A stretch of 64,000 nt of DNA from Candidatus Eiseniibacteriota bacterium (GCA_963792585.1 CAWBWI010000006.1:224001-288000), one strand, 5' to 3'. Positions 10,445 through 36,328 are shown, counted from the stretch's first letter. Made by a program: numbers and translations. Notes: a model not told the origin generated them from the letters alone.

Positions 10445-13087
10445 TCACCGGCCACCCCGCGCAAGCCAGGCCGCCTCGTCCCCTTCGTCGCGGCCGGTAG
10501 CATCGCTCGCGTCAAGGCGGGTCGGGATTGGGGATACCAACTTCAGATGTCCGCGGCGGTCGTTTGATTGACCGGAAACGCTGCCTCCGGTTCGATTGAA
10601 GCCGGCATTGCTGAGCCGGAATTGGGAGACCAGCGCCCGAAGTTCCTCGGCCTGGCCGGACAGCTCTTCGGAGGCCGAGGCCGACTCCTCCGAGTTCGCG
10701 GCGTTCTGCTGCGTGACCTGATTCACCTGCTCCACTGCAGCGGTGACCTGCTCGATTCCCGTCTGCTGCTCGCCCGAAGACACCGCGACCCCGCTCATGA
10801 CTTCGCCGACCCTATCGGCCTGGCGGACGATATCTTCAAGCTGAGCTAGCACCTGGCGATTGAGCTCCACTCCGCCCTGGGCGTTCTGTACCGATTCCTC
10901 GATCAGGTCGGCGGTGGTCTTGGCAGCTGCGGCGCTGCGCATGGCTAGATTGCGCACCTCCTCGGCGACCACGGCGAACCCCTTGCCGGCGTCTCCTGCC
11001 CTGGCCGCCTCGACCGCCGCGTTCAGAGCGAGCAGGTTGGTTTGGAAGGCGATCTCATCAATGGTCTTGACGATCTTTGCCGTGGAGTCGCTCGAGACCT
11101 TGATCCGTTCCATGGCCTCGCTCATGCGCTGCATGCCTGCCAACCCCTGATTGGCGCTCGTCCGAGCACCGTCAGCGAGGGAGCGCGCTTCCTTGGCGCC
11201 CGCAGAAGCGGAGTGGGTGACCGAGTCCATCTCCTGCAAGGAGCTGCTGATCTCCTCGAGTGAGCCGGCCTGCTCGCTGGATCCTTGAGCCAGCGCCTGA
11301 CTGCCGGTTCCGATCTCCCCAGCCGCGCTGGCGACCTGTTCCACCGCCGCCGCCACCCGTTGGAGCCCCTCGTCCAGATTCTCCACTGCTTGGTTGAGCG
11401 ACTCCTTCAGCTTGTCGTTGTCTCCCTGGTAGGTTCCGGTCATGCGGGAGGAGAGGTCACGTTCGGCTACTCGCTCGAGGACGCGTGAGGCCTCCTGCAC
11501 AGGCAGCACGACCGCGTCGAGGGTCTCGTTGACCCCCTGGATCACGTCTCGGTAGCCGCCCTGGAATCTGGCGGCGTTCCCTCGGGTGGATAGCTGTCCG
11601 GCAACCGCGGCGCGGCTCAACGACTGCATCTCGGCCACCATCCCCCGGATCGCCCCGACCATCTTCTCCATGCTGCGCGCAAGCAGGTCGCGCTCCGAAC
11701 GCGCCTGAACCTCCACCCCCATGTCTCCGGCCGCGACCCGCTCCGAGACTTCGGCCTGGGCACGCAGGTTCGCGCACATGGCGGCCATGCCACGCGCCAG
11801 GTCTCCCATTTCGCCCCGCCGGGACGTGTTCACCGTCACTTCGACGTCGCCCTCGGCCAGGAGGGCGGCCGCCGTTTTGAGTTCCTCGATCGGCAGTGTC
11901 ACGCTCGACCGGATGACCCGATAGACGATGAGGAGAACGAGCAGCACCACGGTCGCCCCGCTGAGCATGCAGATCCAGAAGAGGCGCCGCAGAGCGGAGT
12001 CCGCCTTTCTCTGGGCGGCAAGGAACTCATCCTCATAGGCCCCGGCCCCGATGACCCAATCCCATGGCTCGAAGTAGGTCACGGCCGCAATCTTCATACG
12101 AGGGCGCGCCTCTCCCTGGTTCTGCCACGGATAGCGCGTGAACGTCACCTCGCGACCATGGACGCCCAGACCCGCTTGCACGATCGTCTGGATGAAAGGA
12201 TTCCCGTCGGCGTCCTTGGAGTCCCACAGATCCTCGCCGTCCCGCTTACCGTCCTTAGAGACGATGTAGTGTCCCCGGTGCTCGCCCTTGCCTCCCAGGA
12301 CATAGACATAGCCGGTCTGTCCAACGGATCGGGCCAGGATGGCCTGGCGCAGGCTCTTCACATTCTCCTGGTCGATGCCAACGTAGAGCATTCCCTGGAC
12401 ACGCCCTTCGGAGTCGCGCAGAGGCTCATAGCGGGCGAGGCACCATCGGTCCACCACGAACGCGCGCCCGCCATAGACCTCGCCGCGAAGCACAGCGGAC
12501 ACGACGGGATTGGGCTGGCCGTCCGGGTTGCGCGCGGGGATATAGGTCCCGATGGCGCGACGGCCGTCCTTTCCCAGCACGGTGGTGGCGACGCGCAGCA
12601 TGTCCCCGTCCGGGTTCATGCGCTGGAAGATCGTGCAACTGCCGCCGACTTGAGATGCCACTTCGTCGACCACCGGCGTGGACTGACCCGACGCCCTGTT
12701 CTGTCCCAGCCAGGTTGTTCCCACCGCCGCGCGCGAAAGCTCGGTCGTGGACGAGGCCTGGGTGATCTGATTGACGGCGGTCCACCCAATCGTCTCGTTC
12801 TGAAGGCGCAGGCCTCCGTGCCGTCGCAAGGCCTCTCGGGCCACCCGGAGGTTGCCTTCCAACGATTGCTGTATGGACTCGTGTTGCGTCAGACAAAGCG
12901 CGTAGATGTCCTCGGCGACGCTGCCGAGGTTGGCCCGCACCTGCTGATCCAGCTCGGCGTTGATCTCCCGCCCGAGTTTCTGTTTCTCCATGGCGAGGGC
13001 AACGAGTAGCGCGGCGACAGGGACAAGCGCTGCGGCCAGGGCCAGCAACGTCAAACGACCTCGCACCGTCTCGGTAATCCATCTCAC
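10445..13087 (-). CDS. Methyl-accepting chemotaxis protein with Cache_3-Cache_2-type sensor and HAMP domains
   Basis: [37 protein letters not shown] hairpin; [19 protein letters not shown] Cache motif; two TMs. Confidence 0.95.
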
Positions 13088-13321
13088 GGACGTCTCCCAT
13101 TCTGTCGCGGTGGTGTCCCGCGAATTGCTTGGAGCGGACCCTGGAAACTCGCTTGAGCACAGGAGACGAGGGGTCGGTAGGAGATGGTGGATTCGACGGC
13201 AGCCCCCCCTTATGGCATGCTCGCCATCTTCGAAATGACTCGGATCCGTCGCGACCGACCTTGAGGTATGGATGGATCAGCCCGATGGAATTCACATCGC
13301 AATCGATCGCATCGCCCATGT

Positions 13322-13383
13322 GCGAACCGACCCGCCGCGAACCGACGCGCCGCGAACCGATCCGGCCGCAAATCAGCGCAGCC
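13322..13383. repeat. Three to four tandem 15-16 bp repeats (gcgaaccga..gcc) upstream of the MCP
   Basis: Copies at 13322, 13337, 13352 and a degenerate one at 13368. Confidence 0.6.
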
Positions 13384-13544
13384 GTTCGTTAACGCGTCGT
13401 GAGCCGGCGCTCCTTGTCGAATCGAGCCGCTGTTCGGCACTCGCACGTCTTGAACCCCGATGGGCGGTTGCATGAGCACGATTCCCCTGTTGGAGACGGG
13501 CGGGACCGACGATCTTCCGGCCCACGGACGACGGACCGGATCAC

Positions 13545-14423
13545 CTAGGCCGAACGAACGCGCCTGCGGACCCAGTCGCGGATCCTTCCGAACAGCCCCG
13601 CCGACGCGATCCGACCCCTGCTGACGTCGGCCACCGCGATCGCGGGCGGCACGTGCGGCTGACCATATCGTTCCCGCAGGTGATGCAGATGGTCCATCAT
13701 GAAGAGGTAGAGGTCGGTCTCCGTGCGGCCGGGAAACGTGCTCAGGATCCCGCTCGAGCGGATCGTGTCGATCATCGGGCGATAGACCGTATCTCGCCAG
13801 GAAGCGACGCCTTCCGCCCAGCCGATCGCGCGCCCGGTCTCGATCCCGCGGTAGTAGCGATGAACGTTGATGTGATCGATCAAGCGCTCGTAGCCGCCCG
13901 GTACGCTTACGCGGTAGGCGCCGGGCGCGTCGGGCACGAGACCGGTCGCTTCGAGGAAGTCGGCGTCCAGCCCTTTGAGGAGGACATCTTCGAGGGAGTC
14001 GCCGGGCTGCAGGGTCACAGGCGTCAGGTACTCGATCACCCGCGCCTCGACCGTCCGGGCCCCGAGGGAGCGCGCGACGGAGACGCGGTGGTGGCCGTCG
14101 ACCACGAAGTAGACCTCGCCGACCTCGTAGAGCTCGATCGTGCCGAAGCCTTTGGGTCCCTCCGCGAGCGCCAGGACATCTTCCCAGCGGTCGCGAAGCG
14201 ATTCATCCTGGGGTAGGAAGAAGCGACTGAACTCGTCGGCCCGCTCGACCGAACCGACGATCCGATCACATGGCACATCCCGGATGCCCCGATCGACGGA
14301 ACGCTTGAGCCGCAGCCCCTCGCGGACCGTCTCGAACGGGAGCAGACCGGAGGGGCGTTTGCGGAGGAACGCGAGGACCTCCTCCACGAATGCCCTGCGG
14401 CGCGCCGCGTCGAACTCGCTCAT
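13545..14423 (-). CDS. ParB/Srx-like domain protein (DUF4032-like C-terminus)
   Basis: IVGSVER, YFVVDGHHRVSVAR, FPGRTETDLYL motifs; ATG 14423 with GAGAGGG SD. Confidence 0.75.
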   Translation of the reverse strand: MSEFDAARRRAFVEEVLAFLRKRPSGLLPFETVREGLRLKRSVDRGIRDVPCDRIVGSVERADEFSRFFLPQDESLRDRWEDVLALAEGPKGFGTIELYEVGEVYFVVDGHHRVSVARSLGARTVEARVIEYLTPVTLQPGDSLEDVLLKGLDADFLEATGLVPDAPGAYRVSVPGGYERLIDHINVHRYYRGIETGRAIGWAEGVASWRDTVYRPMIDTIRSSGILSTFPGRTETDLYLFMMDHLHHLRERYGQPHVPPAIAVADVSRGRIASAGLFGRIRDWVRRRVRSA

Positions 14424-14490
14424 CGGCGACCCTCTCTGCAGGCAGCTTCTTTGCCTTGCCGTCGCACTCGGCGCCGCTACAATAACGCCC

Positions 14491-16167
14491 ATGAAAACGA
14501 ATTGGAACCTCCAGGCCCGGCGACTCTCGACCCTCCTTCTCGTCACCTCCGCCCTGTCGCTCTCGTGCGGCTCGGGACGGAAGACGCAGCCGCCCCCCGC
14601 GGCGGTTCCGGCCTCGCCCGTCTACCAATGGAACAACGACTGGTCCCGCGGAAGCGTCTTCTACGAGATCTTCGTGAGGAGTTTCTACGATTCCAACGGG
14701 GACGGGATCGGCGACCTGCCGGGCTTGATCCAGAAGCTCGACTACCTGAACGACGGTGATCCGTCCACGACGGGCGACCTCGGAATCGAGGGGATCTGGC
14801 TCATGCCGATCTTCAAGTCGCCGAGCTACCACGGCTACGACACGACCGACTATACCGAGGTCAATCCCGACTACGGGACCAACGAGGATTTGGCTCGACT
14901 GCTCGACGAGGCACACCGGCGGGGCATCCATGTGATCGTCGATCTCGTGATGAACCACGTGAGCGCTCAACACCCATGGTTCGTCGCCGCGCAATCCCCA
15001 TCCTCCGCCAAACGGAACTGGTTCGTCTGGCGGCGGGACGATCCGGGCTGGACGCAACCTTGGGGCGGTGCGAACCCGACCTGGCACGAGGCGGGCGGAT
15101 CGTACTACTACGGAGTCTTCTGGGGCGGCATGCCCGATCTGAACTTCCGCAATCCGGAGGTGTGCAGGCAGATCGAGGAGTACGCGAAGCTCTGGCTCGG
15201 CAGGGGCGTCGACGGCTTCCGTCTGGATGCGACCCGCCACCTGATCGAGGACGGCCCGGGACAACAACAGGTCGATACCCCCGAGACCCACGCATTCCTG
15301 AAGGAGTTCTCAGCAGCCGTGCGCGCGGCGAAACCGCAGGCCACACTCGTCGGCGAGAATTGGACCGATACGGAGACGATCGCGACCTACTTCGGGTCGA
15401 TCGCACCGATCCGGGAAGGCGACGAGCTGCCGATGAACTTCAACTTTCCCCTCGCGGGGGCGATCCTCGACGGGGTCGGCTCGGGCAGCGCCGAAGGAAT
15501 CGCCGCGAAGATCGTCGAAATCCTCGCGACCTACCCCATAGGTGTCAACGACGCGCCGTTCCTGACCAATCACGACATGGTCCGCGTGGCGAACCAGCTC
15601 CGGCAGGATCCCGCGAAGCTGCGTATGGCCGCATCGGTCCTGCTCACGCTGCCCGGCTCGCCGTTTCTCTACTATGGTGAGGAGATCGGCTTGCGCAACG
15701 GCACGACCGACAATGACGAGGCCAAACGAACGCCGATGCCGTGGGATGGATCCTCGGGGGGGGGCTTCACGACCTCGACGCCGTGGTTCCCCTTCGCGCC
15801 CGGACACGATGCCGTCAACGTCGCCTCGCAGAAGGACGACCCCGCCTCGCTCCTCTCCCACTATCGGAGTCTGATCCAGCTGCGCGCATCCCGACCCGAA
15901 CTCCGCCGGGGATCGATCGTGATCTTGAGTCCTCCGGAGCAAGGGCCGTCGATCCTCGCCTTCATCCGGGACGCAGACGGAAAGCAGATCCTCGTCGTTC
16001 ACAATCTGGGCGGGACGGAGGCGACTGCGGGCCCCTTCCAGCTACCCGGGTTCTACCTCAAGCGGATCTTCCAGGACGGCCAGACCGGCGACATTGCGGT
16101 CGACGGCGCGAAGAACTGGCGGATCCCGATGCCTCCGCACACGACGGGCGTCTGGAGGATCGGCTAG
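14491..16167 (+). CDS. GH13 alpha-amylase family lipoprotein
   Basis: FYEIFVRSFYDSNGDGIGDL, DLVMNH, GVDGFRLDA, VGENW, FLTNHD conserved regions; LSLSC lipobox. Confidence 0.93.
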   Translation: MKTNWNLQARRLSTLLLVTSALSLSCGSGRKTQPPPAAVPASPVYQWNNDWSRGSVFYEIFVRSFYDSNGDGIGDLPGLIQKLDYLNDGDPSTTGDLGIEGIWLMPIFKSPSYHGYDTTDYTEVNPDYGTNEDLARLLDEAHRRGIHVIVDLVMNHVSAQHPWFVAAQSPSSAKRNWFVWRRDDPGWTQPWGGANPTWHEAGGSYYYGVFWGGMPDLNFRNPEVCRQIEEYAKLWLGRGVDGFRLDATRHLIEDGPGQQQVDTPETHAFLKEFSAAVRAAKPQATLVGENWTDTETIATYFGSIAPIREGDELPMNFNFPLAGAILDGVGSGSAEGIAAKIVEILATYPIGVNDAPFLTNHDMVRVANQLRQDPAKLRMAASVLLTLPGSPFLYYGEEIGLRNGTTDNDEAKRTPMPWDGSSGGGFTTSTPWFPFAPGHDAVNVASQKDDPASLLSHYRSLIQLRASRPELRRGSIVILSPPEQGPSILAFIRDADGKQILVVHNLGGTEATAGPFQLPGFYLKRIFQDGQTGDIAVDGAKNWRIPMPPHTTGVWRIG

Positions 16168-16185
16168 AACGCGGCGCCCCGCACT

Positions 16186-17148
16186 CTACCGGCGCGTGGA
16201 GGCGCCGGAGGGCACGACGCCCGGCAACGACACGGGCCGGCGCGTACGAAGGTCGTAGTCCTTCAGGACCGATTCCTGGGCGAGCCCCTCCGGTAGGATG
16301 AGGTCGATGAGCGGCGGCTGAAGGTCGTCCCCTTCCCGTCCCCCACCGAGTGCCGTGCGCGAAGGAGAAGGGGCGATCGGAACCACCATCAGCCCCGCGT
16401 CGGGCCGTGCTCCGAGCCCCAGCATCGCGCCCACGTCGTGACGCGAGAAGGGATCCGCCGCCGTCACGATGATGACGTAGGCCCAGTCGTCCCGAATGGG
16501 AGTGGCAAGGAACGTCCCGGGGACGAAGAACGAGATGCGGCGTCCGCTCACGCGGACCCGCGTCGGGAAGAAAGCGACGGCGTCCAGCCCGGCATCGACC
16601 GCGTTCTCGAGCGAGTCGAGGTCGGCCTTCTCCAGGTGCGGTCTTGCCTTTTCCAGATCAACGGTTGCGAGCGCGAGGCGACGCTTGGCGAGTTCTCTGC
16701 GCGCCTCCGAGGGGCGCGCCGAAACCAGGATCATCTTCTCCCACGCGCAGGTCGAGTCGACCAAGGCGCGCCTTCCGGGCAGCGTCATCGTCTCCCCGGA
16801 ACCGGGAACCCGATCGGTGTCGACATAGATGTCGATATTGAAGGTGTAGAAGCCGAGGCGGGCGAACGACTCCATGGGACTCCCGCCCGGATCGACCATG
16901 CGCCCGTTGGGCGAGGCGATCGGATTCGCGAAGGTCGCTTCGAAGAGCGTCCCGTCCCCCTCCAAGCGCGCGGAGAATTCCACGAGATCGAGGTCCCCCG
17001 ACTCCAGATCATCCCTCAAGGGATATACGAGTGAGCCGTCCCCGTGATCATCGCCGCGGGCATCCTGCAACGTGAAGATCGGAGCGCCGGCCGCGCCGGC
17101 GATGGAGGGGCTCAGAAACAGGAGGAGCATCAAGATCCGCGCTTGCAT
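16186..17148 (-). CDS. Secreted glucodextranase DOMON-like domain protein
   Basis: DARGDDHGDGSLVYP..DLVEF..IDIYVDTD motif; signal peptide. Confidence 0.8.
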   Translation of the reverse strand: MQARILMLLLFLSPSIAGAAGAPIFTLQDARGDDHGDGSLVYPLRDDLESGDLDLVEFSARLEGDGTLFEATFANPIASPNGRMVDPGGSPMESFARLGFYTFNIDIYVDTDRVPGSGETMTLPGRRALVDSTCAWEKMILVSARPSEARRELAKRRLALATVDLEKARPHLEKADLDSLENAVDAGLDAVAFFPTRVRVSGRRISFFVPGTFLATPIRDDWAYVIIVTAADPFSRHDVGAMLGLGARPDAGLMVVPIAPSPSRTALGGGREGDDLQPPLIDLILPEGLAQESVLKDYDLRTRRPVSLPGVVPSGASTRR

Positions 17149-17167
17149 CGATGAAACCTCGGGAAGA

Positions 17168-17197
17168 AAGGCCCGGCGTCCGAAGACGCCGGGCCTT
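17168..17197 (-). terminator. Intrinsic terminator after the 721-aa OM protein gene
   Basis: 13-bp stem, cUUCGg loop on the minus strand, followed by UUUCUU. Confidence 0.8.
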
Positions 17198-17217
17198 CCC
17201 GTTCGGAAGACTCCGGA

Positions 17218-19383
17218 CTAGAACTGGACCTTCAAGAACGCCTTGATCCGCTGCTGCTCGAAGGTGCGCTTCTCGAGGCTGTTCCAGTTGCCGTACGCCC
17301 CGCGGAAGCCCCTCGAACCGACCCTGACATGCACGTTGTTCGCATCATCTTGCGTCGCCTTCTGGACGACGAACCCGTCGCCGAAGTCGGGCTCGTAGGT
17401 GCCGAAGTTGATCTGGTACTCGAAACCCAGCTCCGTGCCCGAGAGGGCGTAGCGGAACTTCGCGTCGAGCTGGTTCTTGTTGTGCTTGCCGCCGGCCATC
17501 TCATGGAGACGGTAGGCCTGGAAGGCCGTGTTTCCGTCGGTCAGATCGATCGTGTAGTGGGAGAACGCCAGCGTCCCGTAGAGGTCCTCGGTCAACTGGT
17601 AGCCGCCGCCCACATTGATCAACGTGTACTTCAGATCCCGATCGTCGTCGTCGACGGAGGTGAACGGCTTCCACTGCTTGCCGGTCACGCCGTCAACCGT
17701 GACATCGCCCGGGAACCCGGCATAGATGACGCCGCTGGTCGTGTTCGTTCCACCATAGTAGTAGTTCGTGTTTCCACTCGCGTCGTACGGAAGGTACTTC
17801 GGATCGGTCATTCGATCGTCGGTCTCCTTGATGTGTTTCACCTTCCCAAAGACCTCGAGCCCCTTGCCGACGTTCAGGGTGTACTTCCCCTTCACCAACC
17901 CGATGTTGGTCGTCTTGTCCTGGAAGGGTGCGTAGGCGCTGCGGAAGTTGTGGCCCACACCCGTGTCCAGTTCGGCAGTCGGGTACCAGGTCGCTCCAAG
18001 CGAACGGGTGTCATCCCCGTAGGCCTGCCAGTTCGTGTTGTAGGTCAAGTAGGTGTACTCGGCCGCGAGGTCCAGGTTGCCCTTGCCATAGAGGGGAGCG
18101 ATCGTGACGCCCTTCCAGCCGATCACGGTCTCCGCCATCGGCTCGTCGAAATCCGAGAATTCGTTGTCGACGTTTATCGTCGCGACCTGCTGGGCGTTTC
18201 CGTTCCATCCGCCGTAGCCGATCCGCGTCGGGTTGCCCCCGAAGACGCCGTAGGCCGCGTTCGACGGACCGGGGAACGCCCAGGATCCGTCATGACCTTC
18301 CGTCAGCAGCACGTCCGCCTCGCGCCGGGCAGCCATCATGGAGACATAGTCGGATCCGATGTCGAATCCCTCCACGTTGAACGAGAGGCCGACGCCAAAT
18401 GGGTCGTTCACGTCGACGTTCAGCTTGCAGGCGGCGTCCTCCCTCTTCCCGCCGGGGACCGACGAGTAGCCGTTCAGCCCGAACGTGTAATAGCTCTCCG
18501 CGTAGGTCTTCGAGACCTCGGAGAAGGAGTAGTACCAGGCCGCCTTGATGTCGAACATCGTGGACGGATGGACGCCCGCCTTCAATCCGTATACGTCGTT
18601 GCGGAAGCGGTTGTCCACGCGCCGCCCGTTGTCCCAGTTACCGTCCTTCGGATCGATCTCGATGTCGTTGACGACCTCGGCGGCCGCGCCGACGTCGACC
18701 TTGTCATTGACCGTGTACTTCGTCTGGAGACCGTAGGCCGCATCGCTGCTGGCGTAATTGCCGGTCTTGTACCCCGGCCCCGCCCAAAGGCGCGGCAGGG
18801 AAATGCGGGCCGCATCCCACTTGAAGTTCTTCTGCACGGCGGATCCCTGGAACAGGAGCCCCGAGCCGTTGTCGCGGTCGATGTAGCGGATCTTGCCGAT
18901 CGTGAACGGGTCGAACATCCCCCAATCGCTCGCGCCGATCGTCGCCGCGTCGAGCCAGTCGTACCCGGGGGTCAGGATGACCGTCATTCCGCGGAGCTTC
19001 ACATACTGATTCGAACGCGGATCGAATTCACCGCGGTTGCCGCCGGTGCCGTCCGCCGCGGCGTCGCCGCCGAATCCACCGAAGTTCGTCCACTCGTTCT
19101 GGCTGAAGCGGCTGTGGATGCGCGCCTTGACCTCGACCTTGTTCGAAAGCTTCGCGTGCGGCATGATCTCGATCTCCGAGCCCTGCCCGTTGTCGCCGTA
19201 GCCCTCGCCCGGCACCGTCGTGAAATTGTAGAGGCTCCCGTCATTCTGCGCGTTGCCCCAGAGCCACTTCGTATAGACGGTCCCGCTGAAGGTCAGTTTC
19301 GATTCCTGGGCCTGCGCGACCGCTGCGACCAGCACCAGCGCGCACGCCATCAGGAGAACGATCGTTTTGTTCCTCGAACTCAT
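17218..19383 (-). CDS. Putative outer-membrane beta-barrel protein (candidate maltodextrin porin)
   Basis: Signal peptide (AQA-Q), Gly/Asp/Asn/aromatic-rich alternating strands, C-terminal KAFLKVQF beta-signal; inside the mal operon. Confidence 0.7.
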   Translation of the reverse strand: MSSRNKTIVLLMACALVLVAAVAQAQESKLTFSGTVYTKWLWGNAQNDGSLYNFTTVPGEGYGDNGQGSEIEIMPHAKLSNKVEVKARIHSRFSQNEWTNFGGFGGDAAADGTGGNRGEFDPRSNQYVKLRGMTVILTPGYDWLDAATIGASDWGMFDPFTIGKIRYIDRDNGSGLLFQGSAVQKNFKWDAARISLPRLWAGPGYKTGNYASSDAAYGLQTKYTVNDKVDVGAAAEVVNDIEIDPKDGNWDNGRRVDNRFRNDVYGLKAGVHPSTMFDIKAAWYYSFSEVSKTYAESYYTFGLNGYSSVPGGKREDAACKLNVDVNDPFGVGLSFNVEGFDIGSDYVSMMAARREADVLLTEGHDGSWAFPGPSNAAYGVFGGNPTRIGYGGWNGNAQQVATINVDNEFSDFDEPMAETVIGWKGVTIAPLYGKGNLDLAAEYTYLTYNTNWQAYGDDTRSLGATWYPTAELDTGVGHNFRSAYAPFQDKTTNIGLVKGKYTLNVGKGLEVFGKVKHIKETDDRMTDPKYLPYDASGNTNYYYGGTNTTSGVIYAGFPGDVTVDGVTGKQWKPFTSVDDDDRDLKYTLINVGGGYQLTEDLYGTLAFSHYTIDLTDGNTAFQAYRLHEMAGGKHNKNQLDAKFRYALSGTELGFEYQINFGTYEPDFGDGFVVQKATQDDANNVHVRVGSRGFRGAYGNWNSLEKRTFEQQRIKAFLKVQF

Positions 19384-19412
19384 CAGTAACCCCTCCCTGA
19401 ATAGACGCGTTC

Positions 19413-20240
19413 CTACTTCTTCAGATGGACCATCGTCAGCGTGGCCATCTTCTTCGATGTGCCGTCATCGTTGCACTCATATGCCAACATCTTGTGCTGG
19501 AGATCGATCTCTCCCTTGTCCCCCACGCCGTCACCCGCGAGGCAATCGATCACATGGGAATCGCAGTCCGTGTCCGTGCCCCCGCCGAAGCGATGCTGCC
19601 CCTCGTACTCATTGACCTTCCGCGTGAGCAGATCCGTCCCCTCCGGGAATCCCTCGTTCGACTGCATCACGACCTGGAAACCCCACGTCTTCGGATCGCC
19701 GCCACCCAGATCCTTCACCGGGACCGAGCCAGAGATCGTCCGGTTCGTTCCCTTCGTGCGTCCCGGCACGAGCGTGGCGGACTTCATCTCGGCCGGCACC
19801 TTCGAGTCGATCTCGGACTTGACCCGCGACTGGCTTTGCGGCGAGAGGATCACGCACTTGTCCCAGGAACTGCCCGGCTCGAAGGCGATGTTCAATCCCG
19901 GGAGTCCCTTGGTGAAGCCGGTCTCGGGTTTGCCGTCGGTGTCGATGAAGATGAAGACCATCTGGACCGCGAATCCCGCGCCCATGCCCCACGGGTCCTC
20001 GAGCTTCGCATTGACGTCGACGCTGAAGTCGGCGTTCGATCCTCCCGCCTTCATCTTGAAGCCGGTCAGATCGAATGACCCCTTCGTGTACACCGCATCG
20101 GTCGGGTAGACGTAGGAGCCCGGGCCATTGTCATCGCCCGTCGGGTCCTTGAAGGCGACCTCCTGGGCTCCGGCAGCGACCGCCAGCATGGCCGCCCCTA
20201 TGGCCGCCAGGACGACGGCGCGTGTGAGTGTGCCTTTCAC
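19413..20240 (-). CDS. Secreted glucodextranase DOMON-like domain protein
   Basis: FKDPTGDDNGPGSYVYPTD..FDL..FIFIDTDG motif; signal peptide; GTG start with AGGAGG SD. Confidence 0.85.
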   Translation of the reverse strand: MKGTLTRAVVLAAIGAAMLAVAAGAQEVAFKDPTGDDNGPGSYVYPTDAVYTKGSFDLTGFKMKAGGSNADFSVDVNAKLEDPWGMGAGFAVQMVFIFIDTDGKPETGFTKGLPGLNIAFEPGSSWDKCVILSPQSQSRVKSEIDSKVPAEMKSATLVPGRTKGTNRTISGSVPVKDLGGGDPKTWGFQVVMQSNEGFPEGTDLLTRKVNEYEGQHRFGGGTDTDCDSHVIDCLAGDGVGDKGEIDLQHKMLAYECNDDGTSKKMATLTMVHLKK

Positions 20241-20259
20241 ATTGTCCTCCTTTCGCGTA

Positions 20260-21144
20260 TCAACCCTTGACCGCCCCCGCCGTGAGGCCGGAGACGAGAT
20301 ACTTCTGCAGGAACAGGAATAGCAGGACCACCGGAATTGACACGATGATGGAACCCGCGGCGAAGTAGCCCCACTGCTGCTGGAAGCCTCCGACGAAGAA
20401 CCGCAGGCCGACCGGCGCCGTGTACATCGTCTCCTTGTCCATGAAGGTCGCGGCCTGAATGAATTCGTTCCATGCCGTCATGAAGGAGAAGAGGGCCGTC
20501 ACCGCGACGGCCGGTTTCGCCAGAGGGAGGATGATCTTGAAGAAGACCGTCGCGGTCGACGCGCCGTCGATCATGGCCGACTCCTCGAGTTCGCGCGGAA
20601 TCGTGTCGAAATACCCCTTCAGCATCCAGACGCAAAACGGGATTGCCGTGAGCGCATAGACGAGGATCAGTCCGATGTAGCTCGAACCTAGCTGGAGCCA
20701 CTTGACGATGATGATGTAGAGCGGGATCAGCATCAGCGTCCCCGGAAACATCTGCGAAACCAGGAACGACATCAGTCCGACCCGCCGGCCGGGGAACTTG
20801 AACCTCGAGAAAGCGTACGCGGCGGTGCACGCGAGGAAGACCCCGACCAGCGTCGTCGCGGCCGCGACGATCGCGCTGTTCAGGAGCCACCGCCCGAACG
20901 GTTGTTGCGTCATCACCGAGGTGAAGTTCGCCATCGAGATCGTCTTGGGCCACGGGACCAGGGTCCGCAGCCGGTCGAGGACGCCCGGATCCGCGGGCAG
21001 GTCGGCGAACATCAGCCCCTGCTGCCCCGAGAAGGCGATGGTGAGGACCCAGAGAATCGGATAGATGCTGATCACGACGAACAGGAGGATCACCGCATGG
21101 AGCGGCCCGTGGCGAAGCTCTCCCGTCCGGCTGCCCTTGCTCAT
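20260..21144 (-). CDS. malG: Maltose/maltodextrin ABC transporter permease (MalG-like)
   Basis: LKGYFDTIPRELEESAMIDGA EAA loop; SGLTAGAVKG terminus. Confidence 0.88.
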   Translation of the reverse strand: MSKGSRTGELRHGPLHAVILLFVVISIYPILWVLTIAFSGQQGLMFADLPADPGVLDRLRTLVPWPKTISMANFTSVMTQQPFGRWLLNSAIVAAATTLVGVFLACTAAYAFSRFKFPGRRVGLMSFLVSQMFPGTLMLIPLYIIIVKWLQLGSSYIGLILVYALTAIPFCVWMLKGYFDTIPRELEESAMIDGASTATVFFKIILPLAKPAVAVTALFSFMTAWNEFIQAATFMDKETMYTAPVGLRFFVGGFQQQWGYFAAGSIIVSIPVVLLFLFLQKYLVSGLTAGAVKG

Positions 21145-23087
21145 ATCCCCTCCGTCGCCTTGGTGACCTTGTTCTGCCAGATCCCGTAGGCGAGGAGGAT
21201 CAGGAAGATCACGGTCGAGTATGCCGCCGCGTAACCGTACCGGTACTGTTCGAAGGCGAATTTGTACGCCTGGGTGATCAGGAGTTCCGTCGAGTGCGCG
21301 GGCTCGCCCGCCGTCACGAGGTAGATCACGTTGAATTGATTGAAGGTCCAGATCACCGACAGGATGATCGCGGGGACCAGCGCGGGCTTCAGGGACGGCA
21401 GAGTGACCGATCGGAACTGCTGCCAGCGCCCGGCGCCGTCCACGCGCGCGGCCTCATACAGATCGCTCGGGATCGATTGGAGGGCGCCGAGCGAGATGAC
21501 CATCATGAACGGGAAGGACAGCCACGCGTTCGTCGCGAGGACCGTCGCGAACGCCGTGCCGGTCTTCTCGAACCAGGCGATCGGCTGCCCTCCGAAGAGC
21601 TGGATCATCTGATTCGCGACGCCGAACTGCTGGTGAAACATCCCCTTCCAGATGAGGGCGGTGATGTAGTTCGGCATCGCCCATGGGAAGATGAGGAGCA
21701 CCCGATAGATCGGCCGCAGCGCGAACCCCTTCGTGTTCAGGATGAGCGCCAGGAAGAGACCGACCGTGACCCCGATCGTCACGTTCGAGATCGTCCAGAC
21801 GATCGTGAACATCAATGTCCAGTAGAAGTTCTGGTAGTCGAAAACGAGCCCGTCGGCGGTGTGCTTGGCGATGTTGAAATTCCCCAGGATGTCGGTGAAG
21901 TTCTTGAAGCCGGTCCAGATCTCGTTCAAGGGCTTGTCGGTGTTGTAGATCGTCGAGCCGGTGAACGATAGGGCAATCCCGTAGAAGAACGGGAAGAAGA
22001 CGAGCAGCAACATCCCGATCAAGGCCGGGAGTGCGTACGCGTAGGCCTGCCGGTGGCGGAAGAAGCCGGCGACGCCGCGCCCGGCGATCCCGAGACCGAC
22101 GAAGAGCAGGAGCCCGATCGAGAGGAGCCCGAGGAGGACGGTCGTCTTCGTGATCGCCCCGGCCGCTTGGGACTGGCTCGCTGCAATCCGCTTCACGTCG
22201 ACCGTTGCGTCGTCGGCGACGATGCCCAGCGGGCGGCGGTAGACGTCCATGTCCCACGAGGCGGGGCGTAGGGGGGACTCGATCCGAAATCCGGCGGCCT
22301 CGAGGGCCGCGCCCGCGGCCGTCCCCTCCTCCGTGATCCGGGTGACCACAGCCGACTCGATGCCGCGGATCTCCCCGGCGGTTCGATCGATGGCGTATCG
22401 GCCGTACGCCCCGACGGCGAAGATGACGAGCACGCCCGATAGGATCGCGAGGCGTGTCCTCCGCTCCCCGATCGCCATCGCGCCTGCCAGGAACAGGATC
22501 GTCGCGCCGGCGATCAGGAGAATCGCGAAGAGGGCGCTCGGTCGCGGCGGCCGCGGCACCGGCAGGGTCTCGATGTGCACGATGCCGGCCATCGCTCCAT
22601 CGATCGAGAAGGGCGCGGCCAGCTCCAACCCCCCGCCTGCGGAGGGTTTGATCTCGATCTCTTCCTTGCGCGCGGCCCCCTCGTCCCGATTCGTCTGCAC
22701 CGCGGCGCGGATCCGTTGGCCCTGATCAAAGAGCGCCTTCTCGTTCTGCGCCAGGCGCCGCGGCGCGACATTCTCGCCGACGTCTTCCGCCGCGGTCGAC
22801 GCCTCGAGCCGCGCCCCGCTGAGCGAGAGAATCCGCGAGGATCGAATCCGCGTGTGCGCGGCCGCGAAGCCCGCGACCGCGGTCCGAAGCGAGTCCCCCT
22901 GACCGCCCGCGCGCTCCACGACCTCCACCAGCGCGCCCAAGGTGACGATGGACGTCCGGCCCGCACGATCGTAGTTCTGCTGTTCGAGGGAGCGTGTCAG
23001 CAGGGCGGCGCCGATCCCCACCCCCAGCAGTGTCCCCAGCAACACGCCGACGGTGAAACGCCGGCGATGGACGGCGCGCGTCGTCAC
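21141..23087 (-). CDS. malF: Maltose/maltodextrin ABC permease (MalF-like) with a long N-terminal extension
   Basis: LQSIPSDLYEAARVDGA EAA loop; FNQFNVIYL; about 340 aa of extra N-terminal TM and periplasmic segments. Confidence 0.85.
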   Translation of the reverse strand: MTTRAVHRRRFTVGVLLGTLLGVGIGAALLTRSLEQQNYDRAGRTSIVTLGALVEVVERAGGQGDSLRTAVAGFAAAHTRIRSSRILSLSGARLEASTAAEDVGENVAPRRLAQNEKALFDQGQRIRAAVQTNRDEGAARKEEIEIKPSAGGGLELAAPFSIDGAMAGIVHIETLPVPRPPRPSALFAILLIAGATILFLAGAMAIGERRTRLAILSGVLVIFAVGAYGRYAIDRTAGEIRGIESAVVTRITEEGTAAGAALEAAGFRIESPLRPASWDMDVYRRPLGIVADDATVDVKRIAASQSQAAGAITKTTVLLGLLSIGLLLFVGLGIAGRGVAGFFRHRQAYAYALPALIGMLLLVFFPFFYGIALSFTGSTIYNTDKPLNEIWTGFKNFTDILGNFNIAKHTADGLVFDYQNFYWTLMFTIVWTISNVTIGVTVGLFLALILNTKGFALRPIYRVLLIFPWAMPNYITALIWKGMFHQQFGVANQMIQLFGGQPIAWFEKTGTAFATVLATNAWLSFPFMMVISLGALQSIPSDLYEAARVDGAGRWQQFRSVTLPSLKPALVPAIILSVIWTFNQFNVIYLVTAGEPAHSTELLITQAYKFAFEQYRYGYAAAYSTVIFLILLAYGIWQNKVTKATEGI

Positions 23088-24348
23088 TGCTTGCGCAGCC
23101 TCGCGATGGCGTCCAGGACCTCTTTCTGAGCGACCTCCATCGCAGCCTGCGGGGTCGCGGATTTCTGCACGATCGTGTTCATCGCCGTCGAAACCGGCGA
23201 CCAGACCATCGTCATCTCGACCGAGTTGGGCATCGGAACCGCGTTCTCGACCTGCTGGCGGAAGACCTTCAGAATCGGGTCCTGCCCCACCTTCGGGTCG
23301 TCATAGACCGCCTTGTTCGCGGGTGTCTGCCGCCCCTCGACGGCAAGGGTCGTCACGGAGGGCAGGTCGGTCACGTACTTGACGAAGTCGTACGCGGCTT
23401 CCTTGCTCTTGGAGGGACCGGCGATGTAGACACCCTCGACCGTCATCCAGGGCCGCATCGGCTTGCCGCCGGCCTCGTCGATCGCGGGAAGCGGCGCGAG
23501 GCCGTAGTCGATCGTCTTGGCGATCTCGCCGAGGAACCATGGACCCGAGAAGACCATGGCCGCCTTCCCATCGTTGAAGAGCGATGTGATGAGCGCCGTC
23601 GAAGGCTCGGCGGGCAGGATCCCATCCTGTTGCGCCCACTTGAGCATCAGGTCGAGAGATTGGATGTTCGCCGGCGCGTTGAGGGCCGGCTTGCCCGAGG
23701 CGTCGAAGACACCGCCGCCGAATGCGTTCATCAACGGCGCGTGGTAATAGAAGTTCGCATACCAGTATGCGAGGCCGAACTTGCCGACGGCGGGATCGGT
23801 GAGCGACTTGGCGAGCTTCACGAGTTCCGCCGACGTCTTCGGCGGCGTCGCCACAAGCTTCTTGTTGTAGATCATCGTGATGACCTTGTAGTTCAACGGC
23901 AGGCCGAAGACCTGCCCCTTGTAGGTCATCGCCTGCATCGTCGTCGGCAGGAAGCGAGCCTTCGTGGCGTCGTCGAGGAAGAAGTCGATCGGCTCGATCG
24001 TGTTCCCCGCCTCGACCCAGCCGCCAAGCCGGTCCTGGGCGTAGATGAAGATGTCGGGGCCCTTCCCCCGCGGCACCGCGGCGGTGATCTTGTCGGCAAA
24101 GGCGTCGTACGGGACGGCAAGGGTCGTCACCTTGACGCCCGAGGAGGTTTGCGCCGCGTTGTAGGCGGCGACGACCTTCTCGAACGCCGCCTTTTCTTCG
24201 CCCCGATAGGCATGCCAGACGACCAGTTCCGTCTGCGCCACCGTGATCCCGGGAAGGAGCAGGAACGCCACCGCGAGCAGGAGTCGCGTCCCCCGGAGCA
24301 TCGCATGGACACGCAGAATCCGATTCATGGAGATCCTCCTCACCCCGC

Positions 24349-24352
<4 letters not shown>
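23084..24352 (-). CDS. malE: Maltose/maltodextrin-binding periplasmic protein (MalE-like)
   Basis: LVVWH, GPDIFIYAQDRLGGW, YNKKLV, GKAAMVFSGPW, PMPN..M..VW motifs. Confidence 0.88.
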
Positions 24353-25443
<1,091 letters not shown>

Positions 25444-25450
25444 CGTTTCC

Positions 25451-27049
25451 TCATTTCCCTTGATCGTCGCGCGCCTGCGCGACCAGAATCCGCGCGGATC
25501 GCGACGGGACGGTCGTCGTCATCGAATCCCCCGGCGCCGCGAAAGAGACGCCACCCCAGAGGTCCTCGACGGTCGAACCTCCCCAGAGCGTCGGGGTCTT
25601 GAACGTCGCGACTGCGGGGGCCGCGCCGCGATTGATCGCGATCACGACCGCATCCGCGGTCATCGTGTCCGTTTGCGAGAAGATCAGCAGGTCTCCCTTG
25701 GTCGAAAGCCCCGTGTGAAAACCGCGTGAGAGCGCGGAGTGCGCCCGGCGGATGCCGATCAGCTTCGTGTAGTTCGCGCGCATCGCCTCGTCCCGCGGCT
25801 TGCCCGCCCCCGGCAGGATCGCCCGCTCGCCCCACGGCATGTCGCTCCGGTTGTCGGGCCAATCGCCGCCGACCCGCCCGACCTCGTCCCCCCAGCAGAT
25901 CACCGGAATCCCCACGCTGGTGAACTGCAGAATCGCCGCAAGGAGGAACAGCTCGGAATCTCCCCCCAGAAGGGAGAGGGCGCCCTTGACGTCGTGACTC
26001 GAGAGGAAGTGTGCGAGCAGGTGGCCCGGACGGGTCTTCTCGCGCAGCTTCAGATACCGGTCGAAAGCGACCGTTCGCCCGTTTCCAAGCAGAAAGCCCA
26101 CGACGCTCCCCTCGAAACCGAAATCGAAACCGGCGTCCAGCTCGTCCGCGGCAAACCACGGGTCCAGGACACCGGCGTCACCACCCCAGACTTCCCCGAG
26201 AAGAAAGAAGTCTGCCGACAGCCGCTCGCGGGTGAGCCGGCGGTGTTCCTTCCAGAACGGGTGGTCGACGTGCTTGACCGTGTCGAGACGGAAGCCGTCG
26301 ATCCCGGCTCGCCGCGCGAGTGCGAGCTGCGGCTGCATGACGAGGGAGTCGACCTCGGACAACTCCGTCTTCCAGTCGGGAAGACCGGCGACGCAGAGGG
26401 TCAGGTCATCCTCTCCGCAGGTGCCGGTCTCGTTGGACCGGAGCCAGCCCTTCGTCTTCGGATCGGAGAGGTAACGGGTGTTGTACCCGGCATGGTTGTA
26501 GACCACATCGAGCAGGACGCGTACACCCCGCTGGTGGCAATCGTCGACCAGACCCTTCAGGTCTGCATCGGTACCGAAGCGAGGATCGAGGCGCGTGAAA
26601 TCGTCCGGCCAGTAGCCGTGGTAGGCCCAGTCGGGGAAGCCTGCGCCGGTCACGAATCCGTCGACGTTCTTCACGACCGGGGTGATCCAGATCGCCGTGA
26701 CTCCGAGTCCGGTGATCTCGTCGAGGTGGGCGCGCAGGCCCCTGAGATCCCCGCCGTGAAAGGTCCCCTTGGCCCCGATGTCGACCGCGAGGTTGTTCGC
26801 CGCTTCGCCATCCGCCCAACGGTCGAGCATGACGAAATAGAGCACGACATCCTGCCAGGGGGTGAAGGAGGCGGGTGGCTGGGCGGCGACTTGACCGGAG
26901 AGGACGGAACTGAGGCAAAGAATCCACCCGATCGCGGTCATACGAGCCGCGACTGCCTGGCGCCGGGACTTCGGGCCGCCATCTCCCAGCGCGGTCATGG
27001 CCGGCCCAATGCCATGTCCAGGCCGCAGGGTTCCATCGCCCAGTAACAT
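25451..27049 (-). CDS. Secreted GH13 alpha-amylase/neopullulanase-like enzyme
   Basis: HGGDLRG, YHGYW, DVVYNH, DGFRLDTVKH, GEVW, FLSSHD; true start may be ATG 26941 (signal peptide MTAIGWIL..). Confidence 0.9.
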   Translation of the reverse strand: MLLGDGTLRPGHGIGPAMTALGDGGPKSRRQAVAARMTAIGWILCLSSVLSGQVAAQPPASFTPWQDVVLYFVMLDRWADGEAANNLAVDIGAKGTFHGGDLRGLRAHLDEITGLGVTAIWITPVVKNVDGFVTGAGFPDWAYHGYWPDDFTRLDPRFGTDADLKGLVDDCHQRGVRVLLDVVYNHAGYNTRYLSDPKTKGWLRSNETGTCGEDDLTLCVAGLPDWKTELSEVDSLVMQPQLALARRAGIDGFRLDTVKHVDHPFWKEHRRLTRERLSADFFLLGEVWGGDAGVLDPWFAADELDAGFDFGFEGSVVGFLLGNGRTVAFDRYLKLREKTRPGHLLAHFLSSHDVKGALSLLGGDSELFLLAAILQFTSVGIPVICWGDEVGRVGGDWPDNRSDMPWGERAILPGAGKPRDEAMRANYTKLIGIRRAHSALSRGFHTGLSTKGDLLIFSQTDTMTADAVVIAINRGAAPAVATFKTPTLWGGSTVEDLWGGVSFAAPGDSMTTTVPSRSARILVAQARDDQGK

Positions 27050-27228
27050 AATGTTTCCCCATGGGATCGCAAGGATAAACGGCGCTTTCAGTGCCCTCTG
27101 GAACCGCCCCGCGAGCGCCCCGCCAAAGGCCCCGGGCGATACGATCCGGGACCTCTGCTAAGATTTCCTGGAATCGTGTCCGAGCGCCGGGACCGATCTT
27201 CGATGATCCTGGAAGGGGGACGAATGTG

Positions 27229-28335
27229 ATGTCCTTCGATCCCGAGCTGTTCCGCGACCGACCCGAGCTCTACCGTCAGGTCTTCTACGACAGCACCGAC
27301 GCCATCGTCCTGACCGACCTCGAGGGACGGATCGTCACCGCCAATCCCGCATGGCTCACCCTCTACGGCTATGCGATCGACGAGGTCCGGGGTCAGACCA
27401 CGCGACTCATCAGGAGCGATCACACCACGACGGAGGTGTACGCGTACATGTGGTCGCGAATCAGCGATCCCGATCAGGGGTTCTGGAAGGGCGAGATCGT
27501 CAACCGGAAGCGCACGGGCGAGGAGGTTCCGGTCCTCCTGACGATCACCCCGATTCGACATGAAGCGGCGATCATCGGGTACATGGGGCTCGCCATCGAC
27601 GTGACCGAGCGACACCGGCTCGATGAGATGAGGGACCTCTACCAGCTCGTCATGCGCCACGATCTGAAGGCCCCACTTGGATCGATGATGGCGCTGCTCG
27701 AGACTCTCGCGGAGGGCTACGTCGGTCCTCTGACCTCGTCCCAGCAGGATCTGCTCGGTCGCGCCCGGCGCGCCGCGGGACGGATGCAGGAGATCATCGC
27801 CACGTCGCTCGACCTCGAGAAGCTGAAGCGCGGGACCCTGCGGCTGGACCCGACCGATACGAACCTTTTCGACGTCGTGCGGGGGAGCATCGAGACGCTT
27901 GCGGAACTCGCCGACCGCAAGGAGGTCCGGATCCGGCTCCTCGCGGATGGCAGGGTCGCGAGTGCGGAGGATCGCCTCATCTTCAGGGTAGATCCGGTCC
28001 ACCTCCAGCGCTGCGTCGACAACCTGATCAAGAACGCGATCGAGGCGTCCCCTCCCGGCCTCGCGGTCACCGTCGAATTGCTCGCATCGGACGACACCGT
28101 CCGGATCCGCGTGCACAACGGCGGCGACCCGATCCCTCCCGACGTGAGGGCCACGCTCTTCCATCCCTTCAGCACGTTCGCGAAACGCGGCGGGACCGGC
28201 CTCGGCATATACGGCGTCAAGATGGCCATCGATGCGATGGGGGGACGGGTCGACTACGAAACGGGCGCGCAGGGAACGACTTTCACAATCGAGTTGCCCC
28301 ACAATCCCGCGCCGTCCCCGGTATCGATGGCTTGA
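27229..28335 (+). CDS. Cytoplasmic PAS-domain sensor histidine kinase
   Basis: PAS/PAC (WKGEIVNRKRTGE), H-box RHDLKAPL, N-box NLIKNAIEA, G-box GGTGLG. Confidence 0.92.
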   Translation: MSFDPELFRDRPELYRQVFYDSTDAIVLTDLEGRIVTANPAWLTLYGYAIDEVRGQTTRLIRSDHTTTEVYAYMWSRISDPDQGFWKGEIVNRKRTGEEVPVLLTITPIRHEAAIIGYMGLAIDVTERHRLDEMRDLYQLVMRHDLKAPLGSMMALLETLAEGYVGPLTSSQQDLLGRARRAAGRMQEIIATSLDLEKLKRGTLRLDPTDTNLFDVVRGSIETLAELADRKEVRIRLLADGRVASAEDRLIFRVDPVHLQRCVDNLIKNAIEASPPGLAVTVELLASDDTVRIRVHNGGDPIPPDVRATLFHPFSTFAKRGGTGLGIYGVKMAIDAMGGRVDYETGAQGTTFTIELPHNPAPSPVSMA

Positions 28336-35448: not shown

Positions 35449-36210
35449 ATGAAACTGAGGAATCCAAACGCGGCGGCTCTCGCGTTTACGCATGCGCCGC
35501 ACCTGCCGATCGTCGGCGACCTGCACCCGCTCCGCGCGCAGTACCATCCCATGCTCTACCGGGCGCTCGGCTTCGCCCTCTTCGTCCACCTTGCGGTCTT
35601 CAGCGGGATTCTGCTCGCATCGCTCCGTCGTCCGCTCCCGCCTCCGGAGCGGACGATCGTGGTGCATTGGGAGCGTTTCCTGCCGCCCGCTCCCATCGAC
35701 ATTGGAAGAACCGCCCGGCAATCGATCAATCCGGTCCCCTCGGTGACAAAACTGGAATTCGCGGCGCCGGAATTTGTGCCCGACTTCCGCGTCGATCCGG
35801 GTGTCACCTTCGGCGGCCCCGAGGATCTTCCTCTCAACCCGCTCGATCCGGGCGCCGGCGGCGGCGATGGGGACGTCCAGATCGTGGTCGATATCCCGGC
35901 CGCCCTGCCCACGGGGAACTTGACGCCCACGACCATCGAGCGCAGCGAGGAGATGCCGGTTCTGATCAGCATGCCCGCCCCGACATATCCGGATCTTGCC
36001 CGACAGGCCGGAGTGGAGGGGACCGTGACGCTTCGCGCGCTCGTCGGCAAGGACGGAAAGGTCCTCGAGATCTTCGTCGTCGAAGGAATCGAGATGCTCG
36101 ACAAGGCGGCGATGGAGGCGGCGCGCGCGGCGGTGTTCAAGCCCGCGCTCCAGCAGCACAAGCCGGTGGCCGTCTGGGTCCTGATCCCGATGCAGTTCAC
36201 GCTCCACTGA
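35449..36210 (+). CDS. tonB: Energy transducer TonB
   Basis: N-terminal TM with His, Pro-rich linker, PTYPDLARQAGVEGTV..FKPA TonB_C. Confidence 0.88.
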   Translation: MKLRNPNAAALAFTHAPHLPIVGDLHPLRAQYHPMLYRALGFALFVHLAVFSGILLASLRRPLPPPERTIVVHWERFLPPAPIDIGRTARQSINPVPSVTKLEFAAPEFVPDFRVDPGVTFGGPEDLPLNPLDPGAGGGDGDVQIVVDIPAALPTGNLTPTTIERSEEMPVLISMPAPTYPDLARQAGVEGTVTLRALVGKDGKVLEIFVVEGIEMLDKAAMEAARAAVFKPALQQHKPVAVWVLIPMQFTLH

Positions 36211-36328
36211 TCGCGCGGCCGGGGAAGCAACCGGGTCCCCGGCCGAACTTCTCCTGGAACCCGCTCGATTCACCTTGCTAGCATCCCCTTCTGGAGTCGG
36301 CATACACGAGGGGGGCACCAACACGACC

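Follow-up and report, generated by a model that had tools for sequence, protein, structure and literature searches.

An undescribed outer-membrane barrel family and its Glucodextran_C partner as a candidate entry step for maltodextrins

How do maltodextrins cross the outer membrane to reach a MalEFGK-type importer when neither familiar portal is in sight? Starch fragments are known to pass the diderm outer membrane through LamB-type porins or through TonB-dependent transporters of the SusC/MalA type. The question is raised by a stretch of 64,000 nucleotides (nt) from Candidatus Eiseniibacteriota bacterium (GCA_963792585.1, CAWBWI010000006.1:224001-288000), hereafter the window, to whose full length all coordinates refer unless another locus is named; open reading frames (ORFs) were called from the DNA and families assigned with Pfam and NCBIfam. 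Eight consecutive minus-strand ORFs (16186-27049) encode, in order of transcription, a glycoside hydrolase of family 13 (GH13), MalK, MalE, MalF, MalG, a Glucodextran_C (DOMON-like) protein that we call GdC1, a protein of 721 amino acids (aa) and a second Glucodextran_C protein, GdC2, and a GH13 lipoprotein gene converges on them from the plus strand. An initial annotation had listed the genes in this order, in agreement with the ORFs and Pfam families, and had proposed that the system lacks LamB and SusCD and that free DOMON proteins capture or shuttle glucans to an uncharacterised barrel. We arrive at a different reading, which we rate slightly above an even chance: the 721-aa protein, a predicted outer-membrane barrel, would form, with GdC1 seated in its periplasmic mouth, the outer-membrane entry step for maltodextrins feeding the co-encoded MalEFGK importer.

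The 721-aa protein (17218-19383, minus strand) begins with a signal-peptide-like stretch, ends in KVQF, thus with a terminal Phe, and is 696 residues long when mature. It matched no Pfam family at E≤0.01, no NCBIfam model and, by phmmer, no sequence in the PDB, and a profile of 35 relatives retrieved nothing from the PDB with hmmsearch. When the 35 relatives were scanned singly against Pfam at E≤1, only weak matches to DUF2490 (7/35) and OMP_b-brl (3/35) appeared, and LamB (PF02264) matched none of the 35 family members at that threshold. Pfam searches of the 721-aa protein and the 35 relatives found no match to Plug (PF07715), TonB_dep_Rec, POTRA or autotransporter families. The absence of Plug is meaningful because the same model finds 11 other places in the same genome. 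A lead from a protein atlas to DUF6029 (score 0.94) was not confirmed by any Pfam search and was set aside.

An AlphaFold2 model built on the alignment of the 35 relatives (predicted local distance difference test, pLDDT, 68.1; predicted template modelling score 0.71) contains 22 strands by DSSP, joined by turns of 2-8 residues on one side and by long loops on the other. It has no N-terminal globular or plug domain, and the mature protein starts 4 residues before strand 1. Foldseek returned generic outer-membrane barrels only, with a best query-normalised template modelling score (TM-score) of 0.36, and a wide search with VIA gave 20 top rows tied at Z 12.6-14.2 that comprise porins, TonB-dependent transporters, ushers, AlgE and MtrB. 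The overlay on the 22-strand barrels of TonB-dependent transporters (Z 11-14) and on MtrB (Z 13.3) covers ~400 residues, and these matches tie with many porins. From the model we predict a large outer-membrane barrel of ~22 strands. Pfam, NCBIfam, PDB, AlphaFold2, Foldseek and VIA results together bear out the suspicion in the initial annotation that it is no recognisable LamB or TonB-dependent receptor; it is neither, and belongs to an undescribed family. The conservation of the family is distributed in an unusual way, the mean top-residue frequency being 0.75 in the long loops, 0.68 in the strands and 0.62 in the periplasmic turns, and reaching 0.84 in the 80-residue loop 343-422. Ordinary porins show the opposite order, with loops less conserved than strands. 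In most homologs two outer loops carry cysteine pairs, with the consensus DCxGGDCGEF and AGDCPGGGxxC; the barrel of the window has no cysteine at these two sites (residues ~106-118 and ~535-550).

The barrel gene lies between those of two secreted paralogs, GdC1 (19413-20240, minus strand, 275 aa; PF09985 at 2.7e-54) and GdC2 (16186-17148, minus strand, 320 aa, with two insertions; PF09985 at 1.9e-31). PF09985 scores, 184.5 bits for GdC1 and 109.8 bits for GdC2, lie far above the gathering cut-off of 22, and no other Pfam family matched either protein. Both proteins are paralogous over their full length (hhalign of GdC2 against the GdC1 family, probability 99.8, 25% identity), and PF09985 and hhalign agree with the earlier assignment of the two flanking proteins to the DOMON-like group. 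Each carries an ordinary signal peptide; GdC1 has no lipid anchor, and its mature form starts 1-3 residues before the conserved domain motif, without an N-terminal extension. GdC1 is homologous to domain C of the Arthrobacter glucodextranase (1UG9/1ULV; phmmer 2.4e-18), and its monomer model (pLDDT 82.8) resembles that domain both by Foldseek (TM-score 0.67) and by VIA against residues 775-1020 of 1ULV (Z 22.6, root-mean-square deviation 2.8 Å, 218 aligned residues, 32% identity). The second-best fold match was R. bromii Sas6 residues 252-573 (VIA Z 9.1, root-mean-square deviation 3.4 Å, 169 residues), and the match to family 9 of the carbohydrate-binding modules (CBM9) reached Z 5.8. Sas6 holds a starch-binding module of family 74, CBM74, according to its entry and a preprint (10.1101/2022.11.20.514607). 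In PMC10074034, Glucodextran_C domains are placed in the DOMON-like superfamily as CBM9-like without being classed as a CBM, and kinetic data are said to have hinted that they play a part in alpha-glucan chain recognition.

The pairing of GdC1 with the barrel was modelled from the two mature proteins, with alignments of both drawn from the same 50 loci. The complex scored 0.72 (runs 0.73, 0.71 and 0.72), compared with 0.00 for the best of three controls; 116 of 157 solved complexes and 2 of 215 mismatched pairs reach the 0.72 mark, counts that are approximate here, the alignments being custom-made. At least 85% of contacts are shared between the runs, and the partner has a pLDDT of 86. When turns and loops were assigned from DSSP of the barrel model, the contacts fell on all ten short turns (residues 81, 138-145, 185, 227, 275, 326-327, 435, 504-507, 600 and 648-649), and further on alternate, lumen-facing positions of the adjoining strand ends, on loop 152-164 and on residue 357. 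Loop 152-164 is conserved and predicted to fold inward; the lowest-error residue pairs join its invariant motif G155-F157-D158 to the invariant T47, D48, G214 and Q215 of GdC1. Stretch 209-220 of GdC1, invariant and of low confidence in the monomer model, forms interface in the predicted complex. Because the contacts lie on the short turns, which face the periplasm in known outer-membrane proteins, as do the barrel termini, the predicted place of GdC1 is the periplasmic mouth of the barrel, where it would touch the loops folded into the lumen. The model supports binding of GdC1 to the barrel and is no demonstration of it. The barrel posited by the initial annotation is supported by the structure prediction of the 721-aa protein.

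In some lineages the two proteins are one. In P0156 (877 aa) and in P0172 (959 aa), both among the representatives recovered by profile search, a single chain begins with a PF09985 domain and continues as the barrel. Both have a single N-terminal signal peptide, none internally, a C-terminal Phe, and a linker of ~30-40 residues between the two parts, Ala/Pro-rich in P0156 and more mixed in P0172; because of these features, they are, judged on their sequences, genuine single proteins and not two genes erroneously joined. With P0156 as query, 41 proteins came up at E≤1e-10; PF09985 is present in 33 of them, 31 of which match the fused query over at least 97% of its length (31-79% identity). The named carriers of fusions belong to Aminicenantes, candidate division CSSED10-310 and Bradymonadia, and 15 of 401 sampled genomes from the phylum of the Holophagales carrier match P0156 at E≤1e-20. 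In one of these 15 genomes the fused gene was followed on genomic DNA, where it forms a single open frame (locus L097, 9847-12693, minus strand) directly after malK-malE-malF-malG, with a GH13 gene upstream and no GdC2 after it; the 239-aa ORF that follows was considered as a hidden GdC2 and ruled out (hhalign probability 0.1). The natural fusions show that GdC domain and barrel form a single working unit. Taken with the predicted docking in the periplasmic mouth, they make it most likely that GdC1 is a bound plug or adaptor subunit of the channel and not a free shuttle. The free capture or shuttling of glucans proposed in the initial annotation is therefore disfavoured.

The same evidence bears on another account, close to that shuttle idea, in which the barrel is a plain LamB-like porin and GdC1 and GdC2 are soluble periplasmic helpers, binding or chaperoning glucans in the manner of MalM and forming no stable complex. 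The gene order is indeed reminiscent of malK-lamB-malM of E. coli, where MalM is periplasmic; both GdC proteins have ordinary signal peptides, and conservation is not enriched at the predicted interface. Such helpers would not lead one to expect a complex score of 0.72 against 0.00 for the best control, nor stable single-chain fusions in many lineages; with nothing to occlude it, a ~22-strand barrel would leave an exceptionally wide open pore, and the GdC proteins match PF09985 and no other Pfam family. We regard this account as quite unlikely.

Fusion of an N-terminal domain to a C-terminal barrel also recalls type V secretion, and a second alternative takes the likeness literally: the barrel would export the GdC protein to the cell surface, where it would capture starch for the lipoprotein amylase, and sugars would cross by another route or through the vacated pore. 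A passenger-like N-terminal domain and a barrel, fused or split, are the layout of autotransporters and two-partner systems; the fused linker, at ~38 residues, is long enough to span the membrane, and the fold of GdC1 resembles the CBM74-holding part of Sas6, a surface starch-binding protein. Against this, the complex model sets folded GdC1 on the short periplasmic turns, not on the long outer loops, and the barrel, with ~22 strands and roughly 700 residues, exceeds the barrels of type V secretion, which have 12 or 16 strands and, in TpsB proteins, come with POTRA domains; here neither POTRA nor another Pfam family was found. A split GdC1 with an ordinary signal peptide and no lipid anchor would moreover be lost from the surface unless bound. 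We judge surface display unlikely.

The genes of GdC1 and the barrel travel together. Linkage was counted by tblastn with the window proteins in the best 80 of 186 genome loci, the closest relatives (51-73% identity), with counts corrected for the available flank; the gene order is the same as in the window. GdC1 lies directly upstream of the barrel in 76/76 loci and GdC2 directly downstream in 62/66; MalK, MalE, MalF and MalG are all present in 52/53, a homolog of the first-gene GH13 in 49/49 loci with enough flank, and one of the convergent GH13 inside the downstream flank in 38/56. The synteny survey accordingly upholds, across several phyla, the linkage on which the initial annotation had relied. 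In the four loci that lack GdC2 (L005, L031, L032 and L050), unrelated genes hold its position in the three inspected. GdC2 is an accessory component, dispensable in some carriers, because it is missing from these four and from the one fused-type locus examined.

The barrel family is compact, to judge from the searches. A word-based search, in which 7998 candidates were scored, gave at least 965 homologs at E≤0.001, and a profile search of 1.84 billion representatives gave only 260 clusters at the same threshold. The best 120 homologs are 717-752 aa long, 57-98% identical and free of Pfam domains, and every homolog with a name given by its source is a "hypothetical protein". By record titles, the carriers are Thermoanaerobaculia, Holophagales and other Acidobacteriota, Myxococcota (including the cultured Corallococcus, Hyalangium and Citreicoccus) and Candidatus Eisenbacteria. 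The barrel is present in 5/206 genomes of the window's own phylum and single-copy in the window's genome. This patchy spread, together with ~60% identity of barrels across phyla (Acidobacteriota, Myxococcota), suggests that the cassette may have moved between phyla.

A divergent subfamily from metagenomes, ~30% identical to the window's barrel, retains a GdC1 homolog directly upstream in 52/60 loci. Two of its loci without alpha-glucan genes were inspected; one holds GdC, the barrel and a ~550-aa ORF without a Pfam match, the other GdC and the barrel, both among unrelated genes. ORFs of roughly 520-550 aa without Pfam matches follow the barrel in L133 (10875-12530, plus strand) and L106 (10875-12428, plus strand), and in loci of the L104 type ~3 kb (~10650-13600) separate the barrel from a second Glucodextran_C gene; the ORF or the 3-kb stretch may be an additional component.

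These divergent loci bear on the possibility that the system is no importer, and that the barrel with its GdC protein exports or anchors an alpha-glucan or envelope polymer, or tethers the outer membrane to the cell wall. As many as 13 of 21 such loci show no alpha-glucan genes, the top Foldseek rows for the barrel are the alginate exporter AlgE, the Pfam text on PF09985 speaks of an "SLH-like" binding module, and one GdC domain is joined to an OmpA domain. The AlgE rows have query-normalised TM-scores of 0.24-0.25, tied with porins; the window's own family sits in an uptake operon with a binding protein and a degradative GH13 in 52/53 loci, and a Pfam scan of the operon proteins found no glycosyltransferase or polymerase. 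We consider export or anchoring very unlikely.

Import of maltodextrins is inferred from gene context, namely a MalEFGK-type importer, a secreted MalS-like amylase, a GH13 lipoprotein and a genome without detected LamB or SusD. The operon is tightly packed, with junctions, from ORF coordinates and in order of transcription, of +7, -4, -4, -4, +19, +29 and +69 nt. Its first gene (25451-27049, minus strand) encodes an alpha-amylase-like GH13 (Pfam Alpha-amylase 2e-44) whose best NCBIfam rows are MalS-type alpha-amylase models, every one below its cut-off. A stretch resembling a signal peptide starts at Met37, which makes 26941 the probable start and secretion of the enzyme likely. The following four genes supply the make-up of a MalEFGK2-type ABC importer by Pfam: a MalK-like ATPase (24349-25443, minus strand; ABC_tran 1.3e-30, OB_MalK 1.8e-12 and TOBE_2), a MalE-like periplasmic sugar-binding protein (23084-24352, minus strand; SBP_bac_1 5.7e-35), a MalF-like permease (21141-23087, minus strand; BPD_transp_1 1.2e-26, residues 439-639) and a MalG-like permease (20260-21144, minus strand; BPD_transp_1 1.3e-20). 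Since the NCBIfam equivalog scores of MalE (168.9 bits, cut-off 291) and MalF (194.6 bits, cut-off 392, with the E. coli MalF model covering residues 389-644 only) fall short, the assignment by profile is at family level and not that of equivalogs. On the plus strand, the convergent gene (14491-16167; Pfam Alpha-amylase 6.6e-100), with 18 nt between its stop and that of the operon, encodes a GH13 with a lipoprotein-type signal peptide ending in LSLSC, which by eye we take to be a lipobox.

As to the claim that the system has no LamB or SusCD, neither LamB (PF02264) nor SusD-family PF07980 matched anything in the 84%-complete genome of the window, other SusD-like Pfam models not having been searched; LamB is also absent from 4/5 other carrier genomes, the fifth, Hyalangium, having two elsewhere. 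Elsewhere, the window's genome has 11 Plug-domain and 7 TonB_C matches. At a distance of 8.4 kb from the operon, the plus strand encodes a TonB_C protein (35449-36210) and a Plug-domain receptor (36275-38542), with no evident link to the operon; genes for DUF3078, aquaporin and RNase II-type proteins occupy the interval.

These matches invite the idea of a TonB-energised transporter assembled from other parts, in which GdC1 would be the plug that TonB pulls. A ~22-strand barrel preceded, in the fused forms, by a globular domain at the N-terminus resembles the layout of a TonB-dependent transporter, and one of the seven TonB_C genes is the nearby one. However, the mature GdC1, starting so close to its domain motif, seems to leave no room for a TonB-box extension, and the barrel matches neither Plug nor TonB_dep_Rec; the conserved neighbours found with the operon queries included no gene for TonB or ExbBD, the flanks not having been searched for those families. 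To this idea we give the least credence of all. Since neither GdC1 nor the barrel appears to have a TonB box-like N-terminal extension, we infer gating without TonB.

The entry step that we favour, the barrel with GdC1 in its mouth, could then work as follows. The GH13 lipoprotein and other extracellular amylases would cut starch, and the resulting chains would enter through the wide barrel, whose long, unusually conserved outer loops may line the path. The GdC1 domain would gate the periplasmic exit, guide the chain through, or both; the secreted MalS-like GH13 would trim long dextrins in the periplasm, and MalE and MalFGK2 would import the trimmed products. MalF, at 648 aa, has a long additional N-terminal part, and by eye its first ~340 residues contain additional hydrophobic segments and two long stretches (~31-183 and ~230-313) that are probably periplasmic. 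The long form is retained at related loci (coverage 0.9-1.0 in most), and its N-terminal part could reach toward the outer-membrane module.

Several observations weigh against this picture. The barrel model is of moderate quality only, with a pLDDT of 68 and 203 residues below 50, the most conserved loops among them. In the predicted complex the interface residues are no more conserved than the remainder of either protein (permutation p 0.55 and 0.80), and fusion by itself is silent on the membrane side of the GdC domain. A plugged barrel needs an opening mechanism, none of which is evident, and the genome does have TonB proteins, so that the step may after all depend on TonB. In the divergent subfamily, alpha-glucan genes accompany the barrel in only 8/21 loci with at least 6 kb of flank on both sides, as judged with the queries used. 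Nor is the domain bound to starch: a third Glucodextran_C domain of the same genome is joined to a peptidase-like domain, and P0312, a 1005-aa metagenomic protein, combines OmpA (PF00691) with Glucodextran_C by precomputed Pfam domains. Because peptidase-like and OmpA fusions exist, the domain is not tied, by its sequence associations, to glucans or glucan enzymes, and P0312 is a further link of it to the cell envelope. According to PMC10074034, sugar binding has not been demonstrated for Glucodextran_C domains. The peptidase-like partner occurs in a 605-aa protein outside the window (L083 1465-3282, minus strand), with C-terminal Glucodextran_C and a weak match to Peptidase_MA_2 (4.6e-05, below cut-off).

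Set against known systems, the module combines familiar traits in an unfamiliar way. As in the E. coli mal system, with its periplasmic amylase MalS, the genes of an outer-membrane channel and of a secreted protein whose function is unclear stand beside MalEFGK-type genes and a secreted MalS-like GH13, and its likely task, passage of maltodextrins across the outer membrane, is the same. The barrel differs from LamB in having no PF02264 match and in size, LamB having 18 strands and ~420 residues (target length 421), compared with ~22 predicted strands and 696 mature residues in a model of pLDDT 68. GdC1 differs from MalM in being a Glucodextran_C protein that is predicted to occupy the barrel mouth and is barrel-fused in some lineages. 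With TonB-dependent transporters (SusC/SusD, MalA-type), which serve oligosaccharides too large for ordinary porins, the module would share a ~22-strand barrel and a globular domain that closes it from the periplasm and that forms the N-terminus of the fused chains. Unlike them, it has no match to Plug (PF07715) or TonB_dep_Rec and no apparent TonB-box-like extension, and its closing domain would be a DOMON-like beta-sandwich, usually a separate polypeptide; from SusC/SusD it differs further in the absence of a PF07980 SusD from the 84%-complete genome.

A separate soluble protein in or at the mouth of a large barrel, as predicted here, with adjacent genes, is also found in LptD/LptE and MtrB/MtrA, and MtrB is among the structural matches of the barrel (Z 13.3). 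These belong to unrelated families with other tasks, lipopolysaccharide export and electron transfer, whereas the context in the window is sugar import; the likeness is architectural, and in our system consists of predicted contacts on ten periplasmic turns and lumen-facing residues. CymA of Klebsiella oxytoca is, as the module would be, a sugar-specific outer-membrane channel in an uptake operon; it is a structural match (Z 13.2), its lumen is blocked by a mobile element, and it works without TonB. It is a small barrel of 312 residues, though, plugged by its own N-terminal peptide, and has no sequence relationship to the window's barrel. Whereas glucodextranase domain C is appended to an enzyme, GdC1 stands alone as a secreted protein and has a barrel for its partner. 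A full-text literature search, with most subscription journals outside its reach, found no description of the barrel or of the barrel-Glucodextran_C pair. On these comparisons the module would be a sugar-specific outer-membrane channel in an uptake operon that joins a barrel of undescribed family to a partner domain without precedent in this role.

We advance a broader proposal tentatively, and think it less probable than its opposite: that the module is a third diderm glycan uptake route, a TonB-free, two-part plug-and-barrel importer. In it a DOMON domain resembling starch modules, free or fused ahead of the 22-strand barrel of a new family, would gate the pore and thread alpha-glucan chains through it for delivery to MalE. 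Such an importer would match TonB-dependent transporters by convergence, its parts being unrelated to theirs, and the cassette would have spread from phylum to phylum. If true, it would add a third route for starch fragments across the diderm outer membrane, give stand-alone Glucodextran_C proteins, whose domain has so far been known only attached to glucan enzymes, their first cellular role, and join the domain to a barrel family that has neither name nor model in Pfam or NCBIfam. It would also mean that closure of a 22-strand barrel by a globular domain has more than one origin, and would explain alpha-glucan feeding by abundant uncultured lineages; the module occurs in soil and sediment Acidobacteriota, Myxococcota and other phyla.

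Other searches and neighbouring genes complete the description of the locus. Terminator-like and promoter-like patterns in the region occur at chance level. A plasmid collection searched with GdC1 returned haloarchaeal and actinobacterial Glucodextran_C enzymes only and no useful context. Divergent from the first gene of the operon lies a gene for a PAS histidine kinase (27091-28335, plus strand, likely start 27229; PAS_9, HisKA, HATPase_c), which may be an operon regulator. At the other end, divergent from the GH13 lipoprotein gene, a cytoplasmic-looking ORF without a Pfam match (13545-14546, minus strand, probable start Met42) has homologs of 46-64% identity that hold the same position in ~20 related loci.

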